A stretch of 64,000 nucleotides of DNA from Acidobacteriota bacterium (lineage in GTDB: Bacteria > Acidobacteriota > Vicinamibacteria > Vicinamibacterales > JACQTH01). The notes beneath the pieces are model-generated. The model saw only the letters and a list, made by a program, of their open reading frames with translations. It did no database searches and was not told the origin of the DNA. The stretch is taken from contig JACOUA010000329.1 in the NCBI GenBank assembly GCA_016178075.1, forward strand, positions 3,539-67,538, in the 5' to 3' direction. Below are positions 5,191-54,856 of the stretch, piece by piece; the stretch's first letter is position 1, and each line of letters opens with the position of its first letter. The position numbers and the translations under genes were made by a program.

Positions 5191-5964
5191 TTATTCCCTC
5201 AGGATCGACCTGACCTTCTTCATGTCTTCCCACACGTCGCGCTTGCGATCGGGACTGCGGAGAAGGAATGCCGGATGGAAGGTCGCGATGAGCTGGGCGT
5301 CGCCGTGCTTGTAGACGCGGCCTCGCAGCTTCGAGATCGGATCTTGTGTCTTCAAGAGTGTTTGGGCCGCGAACTTGCCGAGCGCCACAATCACCTTCGG
5401 CTGGATCGAGGCGATCTGGCGGAACAGGAAGGGCTCGCAGGTGGCGACTTCATCCGGATCCGGGTTGCGATTGCCCGGCGGCCGGCATTTGATCACGTTC
5501 GCGATGTAAACCTCGTCCCGCTTGAGGCCGATTGATTCGATGATCTTCGTCAGGAGCTGCCCCGCGCGGCCGACGAACGGGATGCCCTGGATGTCTTCGT
5601 CCTGCCCCGGTGCCTCGCCGACGAACATCAGGTCGGCGTTCGGGTGGCCGACGCCGAAGACGATGTGCGTGCGACCTGCCTTACAGAGCTTGCAGCGCGT
5701 GCAGTCGCCGATGTCGGCGCGAATATCGGCGAGCGCTTCCCCGCCCGCTCCAGTGGATACCGCGACGGCCGGCGACATGTCGGCGGCGCTCGCCGCGTTC
5801 CACGCATCGTCGGCGCGCTGCCGCCATTTCGGATCGCGGCTCAAGCCGGTCACGCCAAGCTCACTCAGAAACACCAGGTGTTCGGCAAGTTGATCGCGGA
5901 GATCCATGAGGGAAGACGTCCCGAGATTATAGGCCGCGAACGAGAAAGAGCTCGTGAGGCGCAC
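5191..5964 (-). CDS. Uracil-DNA glycosylase, family 4 (Fe-S type)
   Basis: [23 protein letters not shown] and a CTRCKLC cluster motif. The start may be the internal ATG (MDLRDQ..). Confidence 0.9.
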
Positions 5965-32662: not shown

Positions 32663-33820
32663 GTGCGGATCTACCTCGATCACAATGCCACGACGCCCGT
32701 CGCGCCGGAGGTGCGCCAGGCGATCGCGCGGGCGCTCGACGAGCAGTTCGGGAACCCGTCGAGCGTGCATTATTTCGGACAGCAGGCCAAGGCCGCGCTC
32801 GATGAGGCGCGGTCGGCCGTCGCTGAGCTGGTGGGCGGCGACCCTGGCGAGGTGGTCTTCACGAGTGGCGGGACCGAGTCGGACAACGTCGCGATTCGCG
32901 GGGCGGCCGAGGCGCTCGAGGCGACAGGCCGGCGCCACCTCATCGCCAGCGCCATCGAGCACGAGGCGGTGCTCAACACGCTCAAGGCGCTCGCGCGCCG
33001 CGGCTGGCGCACGACACTGCTGAAAGTCGACGCGAGCGGAATCGTGTCGCCCGACCTGCTGCGCGACGCCCTCACCGACGACACGTTGCTCGTGTCGGTC
33101 ATGCATGCCAACAACGAGATCGGCACCGTCCAGCCGATCCGCGAATTGGCGGCCCTTGCGCACGAGCGCGGCGCGCTCTTCCACACCGACGCCGTGCAGT
33201 CGGCGGCCAAGATTCCGATCGACGTTCGGTCCCTGATGGTCGATCTGCTGTCCATCTCGGCCCACAAGTTCTACGGACCCAAGGGCGTCGGCGCGCTGTG
33301 GGTCAAGCGCGGCACGCGGCTTGCGTCCGTGATGACCGGCGGCAAGCAGGAGCGCAATCGCCGCGCCGGGACGGAGAACACGCCCGGGATCATCGGCATG
33401 GGCGTGGCGGCTCGCCTGGGTCTGTCGAAGATGGCCGCGGAAGGCGCTCGTCTTGGCGCGCTCAGGGATCGCCTCGAGGACGGCATCGTGAACCGCGTCC
33501 CGCGCACCACGACGAACGGCGCCCGATCGCCGCGCGTGCCCAACACGACGAACATCAGCTTCGATCACGTCGAAGCCGAGTCGCTCCTCATCGCGCTCGA
33601 CCTCGAGGGCGTCGCGGTGTCGACCGGATCGGCCTGCTCCTCGGGCACGCTCGAGCCGTCGCACGTCCTCAAGGCGATGGGGTTCCCGCCACACCGGACC
33701 CAGAACTCGCTCCGCTTCAGCCTCGGGGCCGCGAATACCGAAGCGGACGTCGACGCGGTCGTCACCCTGCTCCCGCCGATTGTGGACAAGCTGAGGGGAC
33801 TGACGAGGAAGGCGGGGTAA
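32663..33820 (+). CDS. Cysteine desulfurase (NifS/IscS class I)
   Basis: IYLDHNATTP, SAHKFYGPKG (PLP lysine), SSGSACSS (catalytic Cys loop). GTG start. Confidence 0.93.
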   Translation: MRIYLDHNATTPVAPEVRQAIARALDEQFGNPSSVHYFGQQAKAALDEARSAVAELVGGDPGEVVFTSGGTESDNVAIRGAAEALEATGRRHLIASAIEHEAVLNTLKALARRGWRTTLLKVDASGIVSPDLLRDALTDDTLLVSVMHANNEIGTVQPIRELAALAHERGALFHTDAVQSAAKIPIDVRSLMVDLLSISAHKFYGPKGVGALWVKRGTRLASVMTGGKQERNRRAGTENTPGIIGMGVAARLGLSKMAAEGARLGALRDRLEDGIVNRVPRTTTNGARSPRVPNTTNISFDHVEAESLLIALDLEGVAVSTGSACSSGTLEPSHVLKAMGFPPHRTQNSLRFSLGAANTEADVDAVVTLLPPIVDKLRGLTRKAG

Positions 33821-34881
33821 TGCGAGTTGTCGTAGCCATGTCGGGCGGCGTGGATTCCTCCGTCGCCGCGGCCCTGCTCGTCGAGCAGGGGCACGAGGTC
33901 ATCGGGCTGTCGATGCAGCTCTACGATCAGCAGCAGGGCGAGGTGCGCTTTGGAAGCTGCTGCACGCTGGACGATCTCCACGACGCGCGGCGCGTGGCCC
34001 AGCGGCTCGGCATTCCGCACTACATCCTGAACTTCGAGCGGCAGTTCGACGATCACGTCGTCTCGAACTTCGTCCGCGAGTACCTGACGGGGCGCACGCC
34101 GATCCCGTGCGCGCACTGCAACAGTGACCTGAAGTTCTCGGCGCTGCTCGAGCGGGCGCGCGCGCTGGGTGCCGACGGCGTGGCGACGGGCCATTACGCC
34201 CGCGTCGCGCGCGGCGCCGCCGGCAGGCTGACGCTCCGGCGCGGCGCCGACCGGGCCAAGGACCAGTCCTATTTCCTGTTCTCCCTCACGCAGGATCAGC
34301 TCGATCACGCGCGGTTCCCGGTCGGGGACCTCGCGAAGTCCGAGGTCCGCGATCATGCGCGACGCCTCGACCTGCCGGTCGCCAACAAGCCCGACAGCCA
34401 CGAAATCTGCTTCATCCCCGACGGTGAGTACGCCGGGTTCGTCGAGCGTCATGCCGCCTCAGGCGTCGGAAGCGGGTGGATAATGAATCACGAAGGGCGC
34501 CCGCTTGGTCGTCACGACGGCATTCACCGGTTCACCGTCGGCCAACGGAAGGGGCTCGGTCTTTCGGGCGCGCATCCCTTGTACGTGCTGGAGCTTCGTC
34601 CCGAGTCGCAGACCGTCGTCGTCGGGCCGCGCGCCGCGCTCGAGAAGGTGACGCTGACCGCGTCCGGCGTGAACTGGGTCGGGGGCGCGCCTCCAGAGGC
34701 GCGCGTGACGGTCACCGCGCAGATTCGCCATCGGCACCAGGCCGCGCCCGCTTCCTGGCGTTCGCTCGCCTGTGATCGTCTCGCCCTCGAATTCGAGACG
34801 CCCCAAACCGCGATCACGCCCGGGCAGGCGGTGGTCCTGTATGACGGGGATGAAGTGCTGGGCGGAGGTTGGATCGATTAG
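33820..34881 (+). CDS. mnmA: tRNA 2-thiouridine(34) synthase
   Basis: MRVVVAMSGGVDSSVAA PP-loop, CAHCNS. TAATG overlap with the desulfurase. The ORF-track start 33298 is an upstream out-of-gene extension. Confidence 0.93.
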   Translation: MRVVVAMSGGVDSSVAAALLVEQGHEVIGLSMQLYDQQQGEVRFGSCCTLDDLHDARRVAQRLGIPHYILNFERQFDDHVVSNFVREYLTGRTPIPCAHCNSDLKFSALLERARALGADGVATGHYARVARGAAGRLTLRRGADRAKDQSYFLFSLTQDQLDHARFPVGDLAKSEVRDHARRLDLPVANKPDSHEICFIPDGEYAGFVERHAASGVGSGWIMNHEGRPLGRHDGIHRFTVGQRKGLGLSGAHPLYVLELRPESQTVVVGPRAALEKVTLTASGVNWVGGAPPEARVTVTAQIRHRHQAAPASWRSLACDRLALEFETPQTAITPGQAVVLYDGDEVLGGGWID

Positions 34882-35037
34882 GACCCGTCCCGGAATAAGT
34901 GTGCCATTCTGGGCGTCGAGGCGCCCGCCCGGCAAGGCGCGAGGAGCGCGCATACCGGGCGTATGTAAGCGACGAGCAACGAAGCCCGGCGGGATGCATC
35001 GGCGTCCAGAATGGTGCACTTATTCCGGGACGGGTCC
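34881..35037. mobile_element. MITE-like hairpin element with ~35-bp terminal inverted repeats and TTA flanks, inserted between the mnmA and trxB stop codons
   Basis: GGACCCGTCCCGGAATAAGTGTGCCATTCTGG ... CCAGAATGGTGCACTTATTCCGGGACGGGTCC. TTA lies on both sides (34878-80 and 35038-40). The core is shared with 49051-49255. Confidence 0.6.
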
Positions 35038-36009
35038 TTAGGCGGTCACTTGCGCTTCGCCGAGGTGCTGCGGGAGCCCCTCGAGGTATTTCTCGGCGTC
35101 CATCGCCGCCATGCACCCCGATCCTGCGGCCGTGACGGCCTGCCGGTACACGTGATCCTGCACATCACCGCAGGCGAAGACGCCCGGGACGTTGGTCCGC
35201 GCGCCCGAGTGCGTCAGGATGTAGCCGTTCGGATCCATCTCGAGCTGTCCGGTGAACAGCCTGGTGTTCGGTGTGTGGCCGATCGCCACGAACACGCCGT
35301 CGACCGCAAGACCGCCGGCCTCGCCGGTTGCCGTATTCGTCCACGTGAGGCCGGTCACCTCGCCCTTGTCGCCGGCGACGATGTCGTCGACGACGGTGTT
35401 CCAAAGGAACGAGATCTTCGTGTTGGCAAAGGCTTTGTCCTGCATGATCTTCGACGCCCTCAGCCGGTTGCGCCTGTGGATGACCGTCACGTGGGAGGCG
35501 AATTTCGTCAGAAACAGGGCTTCTTCCATCGCGGAATCGCCGCCGCCGACCACGGCGATCGGACGCCCTCTAAAGAAGTAGCCGTCGCACGTCGCGCACG
35601 TCGAGACGCCGTGCCCCATGAGGGTTCGCTCGCTCGGGAGGCCGAGCAGACGCGCCGACGCGCCGGTCGCGACGATGACCGTTCGGGCGCGATGGTTCTC
35701 GCCATCCGAGGTCACGACGAACGGCCGAGCCCTCAGATCCGCCGCGTTGACATCGCGAGCGATGAGCTCGGCACCGAACCGCTCGGCCTGCGCGCGCATT
35801 TCCGCCATCAGGTCCGGTCCCAGGATGCCTTCCCGGTGCCCCGGATAGTTCTCGACGAGCGTCGTCAGCATGAGCTGCCCGCCGGCCTCGGCCCCCTCGA
35901 ACACGAGCGGGTTGAGATTGGCGCGGGCGGCATACAGCGCCGCCGTCAGGCCGGCGGGGCCCGAGCCGATGACGATCACGTTGCGAAGGTCTGACATGTT
36001 CACTTTCAC
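35038..36009 (-). CDS. trxB: Thioredoxin-disulfide reductase
   Basis: [17 protein letters not shown], redox-active [16 protein letters not shown]. Confidence 0.93.
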
Positions 36010-36012
36010 TTC

Positions 36013-36116
36013 TGGCTGTCAGCTCTCAGCTGTCGGCTTTCAGCCGTCGGCCTACACCTTCATTCGAACTGCAGGTCTTGTTCTAGCTGAGAGCTGACAG
36101 CTGAGAGCTGAGAGCT
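36013..36116. repeat. Heptamer-periodic inverted repeat, word CAGCTNT / ANAGCTG
   Basis: GGCTGTCAGCTCTCAGCTGTCGGCTTTCAGC ... GCTGAGAGCTGACAGCTGAGAGCTGAGAGC, between the trxA stop and the trxB start. Confidence 0.88.
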
Positions 36117-36119
36117 TCC

Positions 36120-36452
36120 TTACGCATGCTTCTCCACCATCCGTTTGAGCTCGTCCTTCGACACCAGGCCGACGATCGACTCCACGATCTGACCGCCCTT
36201 GAAGAGCAGCAGCGTGGGGATCCCGCGGATGCTGTAGCGAAAGGGCACTTCCGGGTTCTCGTCGACGTTCATCTTGCCGATGACGACGCGCCCTTCCATC
36301 TCGGCGGCTAGCGCGTCAACGGCGGGGGCCAAGCGGCGGCACGGCGCACACCATTCGGCCCAGAAATCCACGAGCACCGGCTTGGCTGATTGGATCACGG
36401 CCTGATCGAAGTTCGTATCCGTAAAAGTCTGGACGTTGTCGGATGCCATCAC
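36120..36452 (-). CDS. trxA: Thioredoxin
   Basis: 110 aa, WAEWCAPCR active site. Confidence 0.94.
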   Translation of the reverse strand: MMASDNVQTFTDTNFDQAVIQSAKPVLVDFWAEWCAPCRRLAPAVDALAAEMEGRVVIGKMNVDENPEVPFRYSIRGIPTLLLFKGGQIVESIVGLVSKDELKRMVEKHA

Positions 36453-40167: not shown

Positions 40168-40839
40168 ATGCCAGAGCCTCCGAGCGGTTCACCGGGCTCG
40201 ACCCAGACGACGGCGCAGGCCGAGTTCGAGGCGCTTCGCGCCACGATCCGGGAGCGAGGCTCGATGCGAGTGCTGGTCTTCGTCATCGGGCTCGCGTCCT
40301 GGGCGCTTGTCTGGGCCTGGCTCGCCTCGTCGCCGTTCCTCCCATTCATCTCGCTCGTTCCATTGGCTTTGCTGGCCGGCGTCTTCGAGGCCGTGAACGC
40401 CCTCCACGTCGGGGTCGAGCGGATCGGACGCTATCTCGAGGTCTTCTACGAAGGAGCCCCGTCCCACGCGCTCGACGATGCGGCGGAGCGTGCGCGCTGG
40501 GAAACCACGATGGCGGCGTACGGGCGCCGCTTTACGGGTGGCTCTCCCGATCCTCTCTTTTGTGGGGTCTTCGCGATCTCCGTGCTACTGAATCTGTTGC
40601 CGGTCGCGATGCTGAGGCCCAGGATGAGAGAGTGGGTGTTCTTCGGACTGCTGCATCTCGCCGTGCTCGGACGGTTGGCCCGTGCCCGCCGGCGGGCGGC
40701 CGATCAGCGCGCGACGGACCTCGACGCGTTCCGCGCGCTTTATCGCAGCTCGAGCTCGGCTTCGACCAGAGAGAGCACGGCCTCCGGCTCCACCACCGCT
40801 TCTTCATCGGAGCCCGCCGTCTCCGGCTCATCGTCCTGA
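40168..40839 (+). CDS. Hypothetical membrane protein (about 4 TM)
   Basis: Hydrophobic segments VLVFVIGLASWALVWAWL, FISLVPLALLAGVF, LFCGVFAISVLLNLL, VFFGLLHLAVL. No recognisable family. The Ser-rich tail overlaps the convergent gene by 100 nt. Confidence 0.45.
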   Translation: MPEPPSGSPGSTQTTAQAEFEALRATIRERGSMRVLVFVIGLASWALVWAWLASSPFLPFISLVPLALLAGVFEAVNALHVGVERIGRYLEVFYEGAPSHALDDAAERARWETTMAAYGRRFTGGSPDPLFCGVFAISVLLNLLPVAMLRPRMREWVFFGLLHLAVLGRLARARRRAADQRATDLDAFRALYRSSSSASTRESTASGSTTASSSEPAVSGSSS

Positions 40840-41138
40840 CAGAAATCCTCGAGCGGCGCGTACGGCGTGTTGAGTAGCTCCTCGAGCCGGCTGACGTCGC
40901 ATCCGACCGCGATCTCGTGACGAAAGATGACGGTCGGCACCCAGGCGCGGCCGGCCATCGTCAGGAGCAGGCGGAGCGCCCGGTTGTCGGCCTCGATGTC
41001 GAACTCGATGGCGGTCAGGCCGCGCGCGGCCAGATGCTCGCGCAGCGCGGCCGAGCGGGCGCAGCCCGGACGCGCGAACAGCACCGGCCGATACCGCGCC
41101 CCGTCCCATCGTCGGAGATCGCGCCGCTCGAGACGCAT
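40740..41138 (-). CDS. Glutaredoxin-fold protein with a CxxS motif and an acidic C-terminal tail
   Basis: VLFARPGCARSAALREHL..VPTVIF resembles a glutaredoxin/NrdH fold, with CARS in place of CxxC. Confidence 0.55.
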   Translation of the reverse strand: MRLERRDLRRWDGARYRPVLFARPGCARSAALREHLAARGLTAIEFDIEADNRALRLLLTMAGRAWVPTVIFRHEIAVGCDVSRLEELLNTPYAPLEDFCQDDEPETAGSDEEAVVEPEAVLSLVEAELELR

Positions 41139-49050: not shown

Positions 49051-49255
49051 GTACCGCGTTTCATAATTACGGTGAGGCACCGAGGGCGCCGAGGCGCCCG
49101 CCCCGCAAGGCGCGAGGAGGGAGAATACCGGGAGTATTTGACCGACGAGCAACGCCGCGGAACCGGGGCCCCCAACGCGCGTTTTCCAGCGCGTTGGGGT
49201 GGTGGGGCGGGATGCATCGGCGGCCGAATGCCACCGTAATTATGAAACGCGGTAC
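49051..49255. mobile_element. Composite MITE-like hairpin element: 25-bp perfect terminal inverted repeats, TTA flanks, shared core and a nested CCCCAACGCG module
   Basis: GTACCGCGTTTCATAATTACGGTG ... CACCGTAATTATGAAACGCGGTAC, with TTA on both sides. The core GAGGCGCCCGCC..GCAAGGCGCGAGGAG..ATACCGGG.GTAT..GACGAGCAACG..GGCGGGATGCATCGGCG is shared with 34881-35037. CCCCCAACGCGCGTTTTCCAGCGCGTTGGGGTGG (~49170-49210) is nested inside. Confidence 0.6.
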
Positions 49256-49257
49256 TT

Positions 49258-49349
49258 AGGACTCACGACTCAAGGCTCATGGAGAAGGCATTCTATGAGC
49301 CATAAGACGTCAGCCGTGGGCCATGAGCCGTCAACCGTGAGCCGTGCCG
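49258..49349. repeat. Heptamer-type inverted repeat, word GAGCCNT / ANGGCTC
   Basis: GGACTCACGACTCAAGGCTCATGG ... CCATGAGCCGTCAACCGTGAGCCGTGCC, immediately upstream of the spermidine-synthase-like gene. Confidence 0.65.
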
Positions 49350-49366
49350 GATGTACACTGCTCGAC

Positions 49367-52300
49367 ATGTCCGGCCGCCGCGCGTTGCTCTCCATCTACG
49401 CCCTCTCCGGCGCAGCGGCGCTCATCTACGAGGTCTGCTGGACTCGGCTCCTCACGCTGCACATGGGTCACACCGTGGCGAGCGTCAGCACCGTGCTCGC
49501 CGCGTTCATGGGAGGCCTGGCGGCTGGCGCCTCGCTCGCGGGCCGGCTCTCGGCGCGAGTCGATCCTCAATCCGCCCTCCGCGCGTACGCCGGCCTCGAG
49601 ATCGGGATCGGGGGCTTCGCGCTGGTGCTCCCGTATCTCCTTGCCGCGTGCGATCCGATCCTGGCGGGCGCCTATGCGAACGGCGACGGTGGCGTGACGT
49701 TCGGCCTTGCGCGTGTGGTCTCGAGCCTGCTTCTCCTGCTCGCGCCGTGTGCGCTGATGGGCGCGACGTTCCCGATGGCGGCGCGCTGGTTCATGCGCGA
49801 CGTGGCCAGAGCCGGCGCTGACGCCGGCAGCCTGTACGCAGCCAACACCGTCGGGGCGACACTCGGCGCCGTCGCGGCCGGGTTCTGGCTGATTCCGGCC
49901 CTCGGGCTGCGCGGCACGACATGGATCGCCATCGCCTTGAACATCGTCGCGGCGGTCGCCGCCTGGCTCGTGGCGGGATCACTGGGTGCCGTTCGCCCTG
50001 GGCTTGTCGGTCCACCACGAACGACTGTCACGCGACATGCGGGAGACGAGACCAGCGATGCGAGAAGAAAGGCGCGGAACAAGGCGGCGGCTGTGCCTGC
50101 TCCAGTTGTCCCACACCCGTGGCTTGCGACGGTGGCGATCGCGACCTCCGGCTTCGTCGCGCTCGTCGACGAGGTGAGCTGGACGCGCGTGCTGGCGCTC
50201 GTCGTCGGCCCGACGACGTACGCGTTTTCGGCGATGCTGGCGGCCTTCATCGCGGGGATCGCGGTGGGATCCACGCTCGGATCGCGAATCGCCGCGCGCG
50301 CGAGGCAGCCGATCATCTGGCTCGCCGCGTGTCTGGCGTGCGCGGCGATCGGCAGCGTCGCCGCCGCGTCGGTGGTGGACGACGGACTGATCTTCGTCGG
50401 CGATCGGATTGCATCGCCCGACGTGCAGTTCGGCTCGGTAGTCCTGCTCCAATCGACCGTCGTGGCCGTGCTGCTCCTGCCCTTGACCCTCGCGCTGGGA
50501 GCCGCCTTCCCTTTCGCAGTCGCGACAACGGCTCGCCGGCCCGACGGCCTTGCCGGCGACGTCGCCGATGTCTACACCGCCAACACCCTCGGCGCGATCG
50601 CTGGATCGTTCGCGGGCGGTTTTGGCCTGATCCCGTTGCTGGGGCTGAGCACGACGTTGCGGATCGCGGGGGGCCTTGCGATCGTCGTCGCGGGCGGGTC
50701 GCTGCTGGCCGCAGGCATGAGTCGCCGAACCCGGCTCACCGCCGTCGCGGTCAGCGTCGCATGCCTGACCGCCGTGACGCTCATCCCGAGCTGGGACACC
50801 GAGCTCCTGTCGAGCGGCGCTTACAAATACGCGCCTTACCTCCGGGGCACGGATCTGAAGTCCGCCTTGAAGGTCGGCGCGCTCCTCTACTACGACGAGG
50901 GCGCGGTGGCCACCGTCACGGTGAAGGAAGCCGGCGGTGCGGTGTCGCTCGCCATCGACGGCAAGGTCGACGCGTCGAACGCGGGCGACATGCTGACGCA
51001 GAAGCTCCTCGCCCACGTTCCGCTGCTGCTGCACCCGCACCCCAAGGAGATCTGCATCATCGGCCTCGGAAGCGGCGTCACGGCCGCCGCCGCCCTCAGC
51101 CACGCGGTGAGCCGCCTGGACGTGCTGGAGATCTCGCCCGAAGTCGTCGAGGCCTCGAGCTACTTTTCACGCGAGAACCATGACGTCCTGAAGGATCCGC
51201 GCGTCCACCTGATCGTCGGCGACGGCCGAACCCATCTGCTGCTCGCCCCGCGGCAGTACGACGTCATCGTCTCGGAGCCGTCGAACCCGTGGATGGCGGG
51301 CGTGGCGTCGCTCTTCACCGCGGAGTTCTTTCGCGCGGCGCGCGCGCGTCTCGCCCCCGGCGGGATCCTCTGCCAATGGGCGCACACCTACGACATCAGT
51401 GAACAGGACCTGCGATCGATTGCCGCGACGTTTCGGACCGTGTTCCCGGACGGCACGATGTGGCTCATCGGCGCCGGGGATCTGCTGCTCGTGGGCTCGG
51501 ACCGGCCGCTGGAGGGAGCGCTGAATCAGATCGGGAGCCGTTGGGAAAGGCCGGGCGTTGCCGCGGATCTGCGGGAGGTTGGGGCGACCGAGCCGTTTGG
51601 CCTGTACGCGATGCACCTGGCCGGGCCCCAAGGACTGACAAGGTTCAGCCGTCCGTCGAACGCGACCATCCCGATCCAGACCGACGATCGGTTGAGCCTC
51701 GAGTTCTCGGCGCCCCGAAGCATCTACGGTCGATCGAGCAATCGCACGCTCGATCTGCTGCGCCAGATTGGAAAGGACACGCCCGTGCCGACCGTCATCG
51801 ATGAGGCGCGCCGCAGCCGGAATCCCCGGTCGTGGCGCGATCTCGGCACGATGCTGCTTCGCGCCGAAGCGTACGACTCGGCGGTCGATGCGCTCCGGAG
51901 ATCGGCGGGACTGGACCCGGGCGATCGCGACACGCTCGCCAGCCTCACACGCGCGGCTGCCGCGGTGAACCGCCTGGACGAGGTGCAACGGCTGCTCGAG
52001 CAGATGGCCACGGACCAGCCGGACAACACTCCGGTCCGCGTCGAGCTCTCGCGACTGCTGTCCTCGCGCGGGCAGTACGATCGGGGAGTGCAGTTCGCCG
52101 AAGAGGCGCGGCGCATTGCGCCGGCCGATCCCCTGGCGCGGGAACAGCTGGCGTCGATTTATGCGGACATATCCGACCTGGGCCGACTCCGGCCGCTGGT
52201 CGAGGAGATGAATCGGCTTGCTACCGACCGCGACGACACCGTCTACTACACTGGGGCGTTGGCGTTTCTCTCGGGCCAGCCGGCCGCGGCGGTCGACCCG

Positions 52301-52630
52301 GCGGCGCGGCTGGCGGCGCGCAATCCGCGACACGCCCGGGCGTACAACCTGCTGGGCGCCTGCTATGCCAGCCTCGGGCAGACCGATCAGGCCCGTCAGG
52401 CGTTTCAAGCCTCGATTCAGGCCGACCCGAGAGACCCCGCGGCCTACGCCAATCTCGGGGTCTTCGAGCTCCAAGCCGGCAACCCCACCTCCGCCGCGGA
52501 GTATTTCGCGGAAGCGCTCACGATCGATCCCCGGTCGCAGGTGGCGCGCGTTGGGCTGGCCGATGCGCTGGACCGCCAAGGCGCCCGCGACCGCGCGTCC
52601 CGGCTGCGGTCCCGGGAACCGTCGCCTTGA
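49367..52630 (+). CDS. Fused polytopic membrane domain / spermidine synthase-like domain / C-terminal TPR protein
   Basis: Start MSGRRALLSIYALSGAAALIYEVCWTRLL. Two MFS-like TM bundles. Spermidine-synthase fold (ICIIGLGSGVTAAA, VIVSEPSNPWMAGVASLFT). TPR repeats at the C-terminus. The ORF-track start 49199 lies within repeats. Confidence 0.85.
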   Translation: MSGRRALLSIYALSGAAALIYEVCWTRLLTLHMGHTVASVSTVLAAFMGGLAAGASLAGRLSARVDPQSALRAYAGLEIGIGGFALVLPYLLAACDPILAGAYANGDGGVTFGLARVVSSLLLLLAPCALMGATFPMAARWFMRDVARAGADAGSLYAANTVGATLGAVAAGFWLIPALGLRGTTWIAIALNIVAAVAAWLVAGSLGAVRPGLVGPPRTTVTRHAGDETSDARRKARNKAAAVPAPVVPHPWLATVAIATSGFVALVDEVSWTRVLALVVGPTTYAFSAMLAAFIAGIAVGSTLGSRIAARARQPIIWLAACLACAAIGSVAAASVVDDGLIFVGDRIASPDVQFGSVVLLQSTVVAVLLLPLTLALGAAFPFAVATTARRPDGLAGDVADVYTANTLGAIAGSFAGGFGLIPLLGLSTTLRIAGGLAIVVAGGSLLAAGMSRRTRLTAVAVSVACLTAVTLIPSWDTELLSSGAYKYAPYLRGTDLKSALKVGALLYYDEGAVATVTVKEAGGAVSLAIDGKVDASNAGDMLTQKLLAHVPLLLHPHPKEICIIGLGSGVTAAAALSHAVSRLDVLEISPEVVEASSYFSRENHDVLKDPRVHLIVGDGRTHLLLAPRQYDVIVSEPSNPWMAGVASLFTAEFFRAARARLAPGGILCQWAHTYDISEQDLRSIAATFRTVFPDGTMWLIGAGDLLLVGSDRPLEGALNQIGSRWERPGVAADLREVGATEPFGLYAMHLAGPQGLTRFSRPSNATIPIQTDDRLSLEFSAPRSIYGRSSNRTLDLLRQIGKDTPVPTVIDEARRSRNPRSWRDLGTMLLRAEAYDSAVDALRRSAGLDPGDRDTLASLTRAAAAVNRLDEVQRLLEQMATDQPDNTPVRVELSRLLSSRGQYDRGVQFAEEARRIAPADPLAREQLASIYADISDLGRLRPLVEEMNRLATDRDDTVYYTGALAFLSGQPAAAVDPAARLAARNPRHARAYNLLGACYASLGQTDQARQAFQASIQADPRDPAAYANLGVFELQAGNPTSAAEYFAEALTIDPRSQVARVGLADALDRQGARDRASRLRSREPSP

Positions 52631-53160: not shown

Positions 53161-54063
53161 TTGACGTCCTTCCCCCAGCCAGACGCTCTCATCCGAACAG
53201 ATACGGCCACGCTTCGGTTTTGCGCCGGAGACTGTCTCGATCTGCTTGCCAGGCTCGAGCGCGCCAGCGTGGACGTGGTCGTCACGTCGCCTCCCTACAA
53301 CCTGGGTATTCGTTACAGCACCTACCGCGACTCGCTTCCGCGTGACCAGTACCTGGACTGGACGGCGCACTGGGTACAGGCGGTCGCGCGTGTGCTTGCG
53401 CGGGACGGGTCGCTCTTTCTGAACGTCGGGGCCAAGCCAAGCGATCCGTGGGCGGCGCTCGACGTTGCCCAGGCGGTCCGGCCGTTTCTCTACTTGCAGA
53501 ACACGATTCATTGGGTCAAGTCGATCGCGATCGATCAGGATGCGGCGGGGGCGGCCGCGGAGCTGACCCGGGGCCTCGCGCTCGGACACTACAAGCCGAT
53601 CAACAGCCGGCGATTTCTGAACGACTGTCACGAGTTCATCTTCCATTTCACCCCCACGGGCGAGACGCCGCTCGAGCGACAAGCGATCGGCGTGCCCTAT
53701 CAGGACACCTCGAACATCGGCCGTTGGCAGTCCGCCGCAGGCGGCCTGCGGTGTCGGGGCAACACCTGGTTCATGCCCTACGACACGATCCAGGATCGCG
53801 CCCGCGAGCGCCCTCACCCGGCGACCTTTCCGGCACGGCTACCCGAGTACTGCATCCGGCTCCATGGCCGGGAGCGCGTTCGACTCGTGGTCGATCCGTT
53901 CCTCGGCCTGGGCAACACCGCGGTCGCCTGCGCGCGGCTCGGCGTCGATTTCATCGGGTTCGAGGTCGATCGGGAGTATCTGATGGAGGCGGCGGCCCGA
54001 ACGCGAAAGGATGTCGAGTCCCGACGAACGCTGTTCGACAACGTGGAGCCGGTTGAACGGTGA
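53161..54063 (+). CDS. Site-specific DNA methyltransferase, beta class (N4-cytosine or N6-adenine), no cognate nuclease seen
   Basis: Motif IV VVTSPPYNLG near the N-terminus and motif I DPFLGLGNTAVACARLG near the C-terminus (N6_N4_Mtase order). TTG start. Confidence 0.88.
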   Translation: MTSFPQPDALIRTDTATLRFCAGDCLDLLARLERASVDVVVTSPPYNLGIRYSTYRDSLPRDQYLDWTAHWVQAVARVLARDGSLFLNVGAKPSDPWAALDVAQAVRPFLYLQNTIHWVKSIAIDQDAAGAAAELTRGLALGHYKPINSRRFLNDCHEFIFHFTPTGETPLERQAIGVPYQDTSNIGRWQSAAGGLRCRGNTWFMPYDTIQDRARERPHPATFPARLPEYCIRLHGRERVRLVVDPFLGLGNTAVACARLGVDFIGFEVDREYLMEAAARTRKDVESRRTLFDNVEPVER

Positions 54064-54080: not shown

Positions 54081-54181
54081 GCAGGCTCTAGGCTCCGGGC
54101 TTTAGGCTTGAGGCCTATTCCCGAGCCGGCTTCACCTGATCACGGTCAGGCCCAAAGCCACGAGCCTAAAGCCTAGAGCCA
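54081..54181. repeat. Heptamer-type inverted repeat, word AGGCTNN / NNAGCCT
   Basis: CAGGCTCTAGGCTCCGGGCTTTAGGCTTGAGGCC ... GGCCCAAAGCCACGAGCCTAAAGCCTAGAGCC. Confidence 0.8.
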
Positions 54182-54195
54182 GACAAGAGGCACCT

Positions 54196-54774
54196 ATGAA
54201 ACGACTTGCGATCGCGGGACTCCTCGGAGCCACCGTCGCGCTGACGGCCGGTGCGGCGGCCGGCGGCGGGCAGGCACCACCTCCGCCAACACCGACGGTG
54301 AAAGTCGGAGACGCCGCGCCCGACTTCACGCTGCCCTACCTCGAAGCCACGGCCGAGGGAAAAGTCGCCAGCAAGGAAATGAAGCTGAGCGACTTCAAGG
54401 GCAAGAGCGTCGTCGTGCTGGCGTTCTTCCCAGCGGCGTTTTCACCGGGTTGAACGAAAGAGATGTCTCAGTATCGAGACAATGCCAGCAAGTTCGGCAA
54501 CGAGGTGAAGGTGTTCGGAATCAGCGTCGACAGCACCTGGGCGAACAAAGCGTTCCGCGAGCAGGTCGGCGTGGAGTTCCCGATCCTCAGCGACTCGAAG
54601 AAAGAGGTCACGCGCAAGCTCGGGATTCTGAACGAGCAGAGCCAAATGGCGCGGCGGTCCACCTTCGTCGTCGACGCGAACGGGATCATTCAGCACATCG
54701 ATCTGGATGCGACCGCGATCGATCCGAACGGCGCGATCGGCGCCTGCAGTCTGCTCAAGAAGAAGGCGGGATAG
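54196..54774 (+). CDS. Secreted PrxQ/BCP-type peroxiredoxin with in-frame TGA (54451-54453) at the peroxidatic Cys position: candidate selenoprotein
   Basis: Track ORFs 54196..54453 and 54463..54774 are in the same frame, separated only by TGA ACG AAA GAG. The joined sequence reads ..[50 protein letters not shown], i.e. the canonical ..FYP..FTPGCT.E.. Prx active site with TGA in place of Cys. N-terminal signal peptide. Possible resolving Cys in ..GAIGACSLL. Confidence 0.75.
54464..54481 (+). promoter_or_regulatory. Candidate bacterial SECIS hairpin (TGTCTC-agtatc-GAGACA) starting 10 nt after the TGA
   Basis: 6-bp stem and 6-nt loop read from the sequence. The spacing from UGA fits bacterial SECIS geometry. 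The stem is short, so this is tentative. Confidence 0.45.
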
Positions 54775-54777
54775 ATC

Positions 54778-54856
54778 GTCAGAAGTGAGAAGTGGGAAGG
54801 TAGAAGTGAGAAGTGGCTTTCTTTCTTCTTCCTTCTTCCTTCTCACTTCTCACTTC
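54778..54856. repeat. Heptamer-type inverted repeat, word GAGAAGT / ACTTCTC, between convergent Prx and VWA genes
   Basis: CAGAAGTGAGAAGTGGGAAGGTAGAAGTGAGAAGTGG ... CTTCTTCCTTCTTCCTTCTCACTTCTCACTTC. Confidence 0.85.

Follow-up and report, generated by a model that had tools for sequence, protein, structure and literature searches.

Does an in-frame TGA at the catalytic position of an acidobacterial peroxiredoxin gene specify selenocysteine (Sec), or does it mark the point at which the gene was broken? The gene in question lies at 54196-54774 of a 64,000-nucleotide stretch of DNA from an Acidobacteriota bacterium of the order Vicinamibacterales (GenBank assembly GCA_016178075.1, contig JACOUA010000329.1, positions 3,539 to 67,538 of the forward strand). 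We refer to this whole stretch as the window, and coordinates are those of the window unless another locus is named. An original prediction, made from the letters of the window alone, had joined two open reading frames (ORFs) into a single gene for an exported Sec-containing peroxiredoxin of the PrxQ/BCP type and had given a TGC/TGT-to-TGA nonsense pseudogene as the alternative. We find that 54196-54774 is one intact gene, not a pseudogene, and that, to judge from its sequence and those of its relatives, it very probably encodes an exported Sec-peroxiredoxin.

One gene with TGA at the peroxidatic position

The gene and its catalytic codons are located as follows.

54196-54774, forward strand: coding sequence of the predicted Sec-peroxiredoxin, 192 codons including the in-frame TGA, with a TAG stop at 54772-54774
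54185-54190, forward strand: putative Shine-Dalgarno-like AAGAGG, 5 nt upstream of the ATG, suggested by its sequence
54424-54456, forward strand: active-site block fitting PxxxS/TxxU, invariant in the alignment except for the Sec/Cys column
54451-54453, forward strand: UGA codon at the peroxidatic position (U86) and proposed Sec codon, from the alignment; the TGA is kept in two same-species assemblies
54655-54657, forward strand: codon of the active-site Arg R154 (..ARRSTFVVD..), invariant in 26 sequences

The two ORFs, 54196-54453 (85 amino acids) and 54463-54774 (103 amino acids), lie in one frame with TGA-ACG-AAA-GAG between them, and translation across the TGA gives a product of 192 amino acids in which TKEMSQYRD stands directly after the TGA. 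An independent gene call on locus L161 uses the same start codon. The Pfam AhpC-TSA profile (PF00578) matches residues 37-168 of the read-through protein, a span that includes the TGA, at a score of 123.5 bits (cut-off 26 bits; E = 6.3e-36), and the Redoxin profile likewise matches on both sides of the TGA. The G+C content at third codon positions (GC3) is 0.75 in the 5′ half of the gene and 0.85 in the 3′ half, and the coding score is good in both.

We aligned the window protein with 25 homologues (26 sequences in all). The column of the TGA is occupied by Cys in 23 of the 25 homologues and by 'W' in the other two, P0003 and P0006. The DNA of these two, on Joint Genome Institute (JGI) metagenome contigs (L001:384-986 and L002:232-798), has TGA at the 'W' column; the Trp is there because the gene caller translated the TGA, apparently under a UGA=Trp code applied to short contigs. 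The active-site residues P79-A-A-F-S83-P-G-U86, together with R154, whose catalytic role is established for peroxiredoxins, are invariant in the 26 sequences apart from the Sec/Cys column. The common frame, the span of the Pfam match and the Cys of the homologues thus bear out the earlier claim that the two ORFs are a single gene with TGA exactly at the peroxidatic Cys. The PxxxT/SxxU motif is used here as defined in PMC13188914 and PMC1794560.

The closest solved structures are those of Sulfolobus Bcp4 (3hjp) and the S. tokodaii peroxiredoxin (2ywn), both with E values near 2e-24, followed by Mycobacterium tuberculosis AhpE (1xxu). By sequence, therefore, the nearest peroxiredoxin types would be BCP/PrxQ and AhpE, within the AhpC/TSA superfamily. 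The PrxQ/BCP label of the original prediction holds in the sense that this is the nearest solved subfamily, but the protein does not reach the cut-off of the NCBIfam BCP equivalog NF006960 (73.4 bits against 140), nor that of the PrxU equivalog NF040737 (73 bits against 270).

The TGA and the frame behind it are conserved in Acidobacteriota

We searched for the active-site block with TGA in one genome per species (185,579 species). The search returned 38 TGA loci in species-representative genomes, all of them Acidobacteriota metagenome-assembled genomes (MAGs) from the Vicinamibacterales, the Solibacteraceae (the source of 2 of the 38) and the Terriglobia. Additional TGA copies came from the two JGI contigs and from two independent assemblies of the window's own species. 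Counting the window and both JGI contigs, 35 of the 36 copies with enough sequence have an open frame of about 105 codons after the TGA, and the intact frames end in a common C-terminal motif, ..G-x-C-x-x-L-K-K. The sole TGA copy with a broken frame, L007, has an apparent frameshift at about position 5255 of that locus on the reverse strand, some 69 codons past the TGA; L007 comes from a long-read MAG (MFD04850.bin.2.120), and a homopolymer sequencing error is as likely an explanation as a real frameshift.

Pairwise differences 3′ of the TGA fall at codon positions 1, 2 and 3 in the numbers 6783, 4350 and 12762, with a like pattern upstream, and there is purifying selection on both sides of the UGA. 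A neighbour-joining tree of 248 forms, Sec and Cys together, places the window within a 25-member clade in which every member has TGA, while many sister clades use Cys; its 20 nearest relatives, at 64-71% identity, all carry TGA. At strain level, the exact C-terminal fragment was matched in assemblies of two independent read sets (Logan SRR12113387 and SRR12113416). Both Logan contigs keep the TGA and are 98.8-99.2% identical to the window. Within the gene they depart from it at 8 distinct sites, 4 before and 4 after the TGA; every one is a third codon position, and the protein is unchanged. The neighbouring VWA gene, by contrast, gave no exact-sequence match on record. The conservation of the TGA, the intact frames and the synonymous nature of the strain-level changes therefore rule out a sequencing error and a decaying pseudogene. 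The choice between selenoprotein and pseudogene that the original prediction had posed is thus decided against the pseudogene, since close relatives carry TGA, their frames are intact and the gene is under purifying selection.

We also considered whether TGA has a different meaning throughout this genome. Of the 41 genes predicted for the window, 20 terminate in TGA. No other in-frame TGA with coding signal on both sides, and hence no second selenoprotein, was found in the window or in about 290 kb of flanking sequence from related genomes, where the candidates were only gene junctions or antisense frames. UGA is therefore not reassigned.

A conserved RNA structure follows the UGA

The original prediction had pointed to a hairpin 10 nt past the TGA as a candidate bacterial Sec insertion sequence (bSECIS). 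The hairpin is present at 54464-54481 as described, and we find it to be part of a larger two-helix element.

54464-54481, forward strand: predicted bSECIS upper stem-loop, UGUCUC-AGUAUC-GAGACA, starting 10 nt past the TGA, with pair probabilities of 0.76-1.0
54446-54502, forward strand: whole bSECIS-like element, with a lower helix that includes the UGA (54451-54455 pairs with 54492-54496) and a few extra flanking pairs

Published criteria for a bSECIS ask for a loop of 3-9 nt, a stem of 4-16 bp, a distance of 16-37 nt after the UGA, a G in the first two loop positions and a minimum free energy (MFE) of -7.5 kcal/mol or lower (PMC13188914). The window hairpin, with a 6-bp stem, a 6-nt loop AGUAUC (N1-G-U-N-N2) and a spacing of 16 nt, lies within the limits for loop, stem, G and spacing. 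Its MFE depends on how much of the element is folded, at -6.8 kcal/mol for the upper stem alone, which falls short of the limit, and at -7.6 for nt 10-36, -10.5 for nt 1-48 and -15.6 for 54446-54505. In the main clade of TGA forms the stem-loop is UGUCCCG-GUAY-CGGGACA (nt 14-31 counted from the U of the UGA), with a 7-bp stem, a spacing of 17 and an MFE of -11.1, and the lower helix pairs UGAAC (nt 1-5) with GUUCA (nt 42-46).

Stem pairing was scored on an ungapped alignment of 33 sequences. The two-helix structure is paired in 89.6% of cells, a share that falls to 23-48% once the partners are shifted by 1-3 columns, and the lower helix alone is 93.9% paired. Pair 18-27 is CG in 22 sequences, UA in 4 and GU in 2, a C-G to U-A compensation, and pair 15-30 is GC in 26 and CG in 2. 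RNAalifold on the 26 main-clade sequences recovers the same two helices at -14.69 kcal/mol. Codon choice in the stem is equally restricted. For Ser the stem uses UCC and UCU alone, although 74% of the genome's Ser codons are UCG and AGC; for Arg it uses CGG and CGA but never CGC, which makes up 42% of genome usage. The two codons are perfectly linked, as UCC-CGG (22) or UCU-CGA (4). This restriction and linkage among synonymous codons means that the constraint acts on the RNA. Outside the main clade, hairpins occur at the corresponding place in lineages with other sequences, as UUCACCG-AGGU-CGGUGAA in L020/L025, which encode a different peptide, and as GCGGUAU-CGUGAGA-AUGCCGC in L021/L033/L039.

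As a control we used 120 Cys-encoding metagenome homologues with the same block and TGY in place of TGA, none of which encodes the SRYRD peptide. The median MFE of nt 10-36 is -11.9 for the TGA forms versus -4.2 for the Cys forms (Mann-Whitney p = 8e-14, computed on sequences that are not independent), and the mean synonymous-shuffle z is -1.6 versus +0.1. When a contiguous upper stem is required and the energy limit is read strictly, the bSECIS criteria are passed by 33 of 36 TGA forms, 10 of 117 Cys forms (9%) and 4 of 20 genuine TGA stops in the window. Taken together, this is a conserved, covarying RNA structure specific to the UGA forms, and the check named in the original prediction, whether TGA orthologues conserve the hairpin, comes out in favour of a SECIS: the hairpin is conserved, with compensatory changes, and is absent from the Cys forms. 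By homology to the clade, the SECIS of the window is real, though it is the weakest of the clade.

On the opposite strand, 54464-54481 was also called as a minus-strand terminator. This is the SECIS hairpin read backwards, with 7 pairs and a T-rich tail (1 site versus 0.8 expected); no minus-strand gene ends there, and we rejected the call.

A predicted export leader and a C-terminal Cys

Three further features lie outside the catalytic block.

54196-54261, forward strand: predicted signal peptide of the general secretory pathway, about residues 1-22 with an approximate cleavage site, from its composition and the leaders of homologues
54271-54297, forward strand: Pro-rich linker QAPPPPTPT between signal peptide and catalytic domain, with P29-P33 (nearly) invariant in 26 sequences
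54745-54747, forward strand: codon of C184, the proposed resolving residue (GAIGACSLL), invariant in 26 sequences

The N-terminus has an MKR n-region, a 12-residue hydrophobic h-region (Kyte-Doolittle mean of 2.15) and a c-region of small residues, and we found neither a twin-Arg motif nor a lipobox Cys in the leader of the window protein. An equivalent leader stands in every Sec and Cys homologue, often with an AxA-Q site followed by PPPPPPP. Residues 1-35 have no counterpart in the solved cytoplasmic homologues, to which the structure alignment begins at V36. These features point to export to the cell envelope by the general secretory pathway.

C184 is the only Cys in the protein and stands 98 residues from the peroxidatic position, within a family-specific C-terminal extension of about 22 residues that lies beyond the region aligning to the BCP and AhpE structures. 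A C-terminal Cys is found in all TGA forms except the L020/L025 lineage. The original prediction had noted this single Cys in GAIGACSLL as a possible resolving residue; its presence and invariance in the alignment are now clear, and we infer the resolving role from typical 2-Cys peroxiredoxins, whose resolving Cys is likewise C-terminal, which is also why a U86-C184 selenenylsulfide is proposed.

Just past the predicted cleavage site, nearly every family member, Sec and Cys alike, has a run of 4-8 consecutive prolines. This run may serve as a spacer or tether and may make translation EF-P-dependent.

Proposed mechanism

We consider it likely, with good confidence, that the gene produces a functional 192-residue exported peroxiredoxin with Sec as its peroxidatic residue, inserted at a SECIS-decoded UGA. 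The UGA at 54451-54453 would be recoded by a SelB-type factor carrying Sec-tRNA(Sec), and SelB would be recruited by the stem-loop within the coding sequence 3′ of the UGA, formed by the upper stem at 54464-54481 and by the lower helix of the UGA with 54492-54496. Guided by its signal peptide, the protein would then be exported by the general secretory pathway and reach the cell envelope (periplasm). There, the U86 selenolate in the PxxxSxxU...R154 site would reduce H2O2 or organic hydroperoxides and be converted to a selenenic acid, which would react with C184 to give a selenenylsulfide. This bond would be reduced by an unlinked thioredoxin-fold reductase of the envelope, fed from cytoplasmic thioredoxin by a membrane transporter of the DsbD/CcdA type; here we infer the identity of the reductant.

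Which residue is inserted at the UGA?

The canonical Sec trait is documented in the phylum. Zhang et al. 2006 (PMC1794560) list Acidobacteria with 3 selenoprotein families, and the supplements to that paper contain SelA, SelB and Sec-FdhA entries for Solibacter usitatus. The residue inserted at the UGA of the window gene is very probably Sec, as read from sequence data, which do not in themselves distinguish Sec from Cys insertion.

Several observations weigh against a Sec-peroxiredoxin at this locus. No selA, selB, selD or tRNA-Sec was found in the 64-kb window, although the window is about 1% of the genome and says little either way, and no Sec machinery was seen in roughly 290 kb of sequence that flanks the gene in related genomes. 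Among about 50 window ORFs annotated with Pfam there was no SelA, SelB or SelD, an Rfam scan of the window at gathering thresholds gave no matches, and ARAGORN on the window and the 38 loci gave no tRNAs and hence no nearby tRNA-Sec. The upper stem of the window hairpin is the weakest of the clade, at -6.8 kcal/mol on its own versus the strict threshold of -7.5, since its closing G-C pair has been lost through an Arg-to-Gln change (CGG to CAG). The hairpin barely beats shuffled sequences (z of -1.42, synonymous-shuffle z of -1.1), and a hairpin that passes the bSECIS criteria follows 12.6% of the window's TGA triplets; the single-sequence hairpin is therefore not decisive, and the comparative data are. 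Within those data, L010 and L014 do not pass the bSECIS criteria, and RNAalifold on all 33 unique sequences gives no structure, because some lineages have register-shifted hairpins. There are few independent covariation events, the main-clade hairpins being mostly near-identical, and kinship among the sequences makes the p-values overstate independence. Finally, export and the U86-C184 pairing are deduced rather than observed, and no reductase gene is linked to the locus, with no scsB, dsbD or tlpA among the adjoining genes.

How far could other explanations account for these data? For a nonsense pseudogene, in which a TGC/TGT-to-TGA change killed a Cys-peroxiredoxin and left an 85-residue product and a decaying 3′ part, one base change would be enough, the window hairpin is weak alone and the window shows no Sec machinery. 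However, TGA stands at this one codon in 38 species-level genomes and in metagenome contigs with frames intact in 35 of 36 copies, downstream differences are mainly at third positions, the 8 strain differences are all synonymous and 4 of them lie past the TGA, every one of the 20 nearest relatives has TGA, and the 3′ part keeps its GC3 of 0.85 and a high coding score, all of which makes the pseudogene very improbable. No more credible is a split enzyme of two polypeptides, with a stop at the UGA and re-initiation at the ATG at 54463. An ATG does lie 9 nt past the TGA, and gene callers do annotate 85- and 103-residue products, but the catalytic residue itself would be lost, the conserved hairpin covers the would-be start and would occlude it, and a Shine-Dalgarno-like motif is not needed to account for the data. 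The Met after the active site (C-T-x-E-M) is moreover equally conserved in the uninterrupted Cys forms, so the ATG is no special start. A sequencing or assembly error, or a UGA read as Trp or Gly (codes 4 and 25), has in its favour the W that JGI callers wrote in P0003 and P0006. We regard both as extremely improbable, given that the TGA is common to three independent assemblies of the species and to 38 other genomes, that TGA stops 20 of the 41 window genes with no other gene holding an in-frame TGA, and that catalysis would be lost if the peroxidatic residue were Trp or Gly.

A further rival is a UGA that is recoded in a SECIS-like manner but as Cys or another residue, either by a selC*/SelB* system with a tRNA(Cys)UCA or by an acidobacterial allo-tRNA suppressor. 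UGA can be decoded as Cys by a selC* tRNA(Cys)UCA that has its own SelB*, and allo-tRNAs, some of them nonsense suppressors, are frequent in Acidobacteria (PMC5389517); the sequences fit Cys as well as Sec, and Sec machinery was not observed here. Yet selC* has been reported from anaerobic Firmicutes, Thermodesulfobacteria, Nitrospirae and Proteobacteria and not from Acidobacteria, and the function of the acidobacterial allo-tRNAs is described as unclear (PMC5389517). A costly UGA with a hairpin, kept just for Cys, would also be hard to explain when TGC is one mutation away and used by many sister clades, and the canonical Sec trait is present in the phylum. We therefore hold such recoding to be unlikely. 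Its narrower form, in which an allo-tRNA or a selC*-type tRNA with a UCA anticodon inserts Cys or Ser at the structured UGA, is marginally less probable again; if true, it would be a natural hairpin-dependent, selenium-independent recoding system in aerobic soil bacteria. Sec insertion into an exported peroxiredoxin remains our preferred explanation.

Two other places in the window were considered for a link to selenium. The ORF at 40740-41138 on the reverse strand was considered as a 'Uxx-star' selenoprotein and rejected, with 37.6 bits against a cut-off of 66 and an end at TAA rather than TGA-x-x-stop; it is a small, glutaredoxin-like protein with a plain PGCARS motif, that is, of the Cys type. 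At 32663-36452, about 18-22 kb upstream of the peroxiredoxin gene, lie genes for a cysteine desulfurase (NifS/IscS-like), an MnmA tRNA thiolase, a thioredoxin reductase and a thioredoxin, the last two forming a cytoplasmic trxB-trxA pair at 35038-36452. The desulfurase scores just below the NifS cut-off and reaches 97 bits against 525 for SclA, and the cluster is ordinary sulfur and redox housekeeping without a selenium-specific signature.

Relation to known peroxiredoxins

Peroxiredoxin-like proteins were named in the original prediction as a known bacterial selenoprotein family, and the literature agrees, with Sec-peroxiredoxins (PF00578/COG1225, T/SxxU) an established prokaryotic selenoprotein family (PMC13188914, PMC1088965, PMC1794560). 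Such proteins have been known since 2001; the prototype, in which Sec was shown experimentally, is Eubacterium acidaminophilum PrxU (Sohling et al. 2001, as cited in PMC13188914). The Sargasso Sea data contain 43 Sec-peroxiredoxin sequences, a survey of >5,200 organisms counted 91, and five Cys-to-Sec events have been counted in the peroxiredoxin family (PMC1794560). The window protein shares with PrxU and its relatives the AhpC/TSA family, a (here predicted) Sec in place of the peroxidatic Cys in PxxxT/SxxU and a bSECIS directly after the UGA, and in both the known family and the present one Sec and Cys forms are phylogenetically interleaved. It differs in its predicted signal peptide, its poly-Pro linker and its C-terminal extension with an invariant Cys. 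The hosts differ too, being largely soil-derived Acidobacteriota MAGs here and anaerobic Clostridia or Deltaproteobacteria for the known proteins. By its sequence, the window protein is predicted to work like PrxU, yet is not a PrxU orthologue.

With BCP/PrxQ and AhpE the window protein shares a near-identical active-site block, F(Y/F)PAAF(T/S)xxCTKEM. However, the BCP resolving Cys five residues after the peroxidatic Cys (CP) is missing, and the solved BCP and AhpE proteins are cytoplasmic and without either extension, whereas the window protein has a predicted Sec, a leader and a Cys-bearing tail. Typical 2-Cys peroxiredoxins (AhpC/Prx1) resemble it in having the resolving Cys (CR) in a C-terminal arm far from CP, which suggests an analogous CP-CR bond, here Se-S and possibly between subunits, although their sequence similarity (E ~1e-16) is below that of BCP and AhpE. 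The most likely functional analogue would be PprX, the ScsB-dependent cell-envelope peroxiredoxin of Caulobacter (PMC3322552). PprX is a precedent for an envelope peroxiredoxin reduced through a membrane electron transporter of the DsbD family, but it is a Cys enzyme and is likened here by function.

Our literature search returned no description of a Sec-peroxiredoxin with a signal peptide nor of Sec use in Vicinamibacteria, and no full-length U-containing relative stood among the top protein-database matches listed, so that this Sec-peroxiredoxin clade appears to be unannotated. Gene callers either split the gene (85 + 103 amino acids) or put Trp at the catalytic site, and no curated NCBIfam model covers the clade. 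Across 38 or more acidobacterial species the clade is thus mis-annotated, and the use of selenium in these mostly soil-derived MAG lineages is under-counted. Protein-database entries with W for C at such a site offer a cheap flag for hidden selenoproteins.

The enzyme would be a selenoenzyme sent by the general secretory pathway to the cell envelope. The interleaving of Sec and Cys forms within one order gives a natural setting in which to ask what advantage Sec has over Cys in an oxidising compartment outside the cytoplasm, where resistance to over-oxidation and reactivity at low pH are possible benefits. Sec-peroxiredoxins, Sec/Cys interconversion and the bacterial SECIS are all established already, and the concept is unchanged; the main value of the locus lies in annotation and in comparative Sec/Cys biochemistry.

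Genome neighbourhood

In about 20 genomes the gene order is a spermidine-synthase/TPR membrane protein, an N6_N4 DNA methylase, the Sec-peroxiredoxin, a LysR regulator and an acidobacterial VWA protein, and the window has the matching order minus the LysR gene. Most related genomes have the LysR gene directly after the Sec-peroxiredoxin gene; in L013 and about 20 other loci it lies some 390-1360 nt downstream of the TGA, and the window has lost it or never had it. We rejected this adjoining LysR protein as a selenium regulator, its best match to NF040786 ('selenium metabolism-associated LysR') reaching 167 bits against 250 and tying with GltC. The N6_N4 DNA methylase gene at 53161-54063 on the forward strand, just upstream of the peroxiredoxin gene, has no adjoining restriction enzyme. 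Its pairing with the peroxiredoxin gene recurs in about 20 genomes of Acidobacteriota, which suggests that it encodes an orphan methyltransferase with a possible housekeeping role.

Palindromes flank the peroxiredoxin gene on both sides.

54778-54856, strand not assigned: purine/pyrimidine-rich inverted repeat between the convergent peroxiredoxin and VWA genes, arms of 32-35 nt, 80-88% complementary

This repeat is a low-complexity imperfect palindrome with arms GAAGTGAGAAG.../...CTTCTCACTTC and is a possible bidirectional terminator. In the upstream intergenic region, at 54083-54180, there is an imperfect palindrome of the GGCTnTAGGC type with arms of 29-33 nt. Both could be terminators or elements like repetitive extragenic palindromes (REP); a scan for T-tail terminators called neither, and a sigma-70 and terminator scan gave nothing useful, its single terminator call being the SECIS hairpin read backwards.

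L161 comes from a strain 98.8% identical to the window. In the large spermidine-synthase/TPR gene at 49199-52630 on the forward strand, the 57 differences between the two fall at codon positions 1, 2 and 3 in the numbers 18, 20 and 19. The corresponding numbers for the peroxiredoxin gene against L161 are 0, 0 and 7. The even spread in 49199-52630 could come from selection that is relaxed or diversifying, from recombination of the segment, or from a mistaken frame or start.

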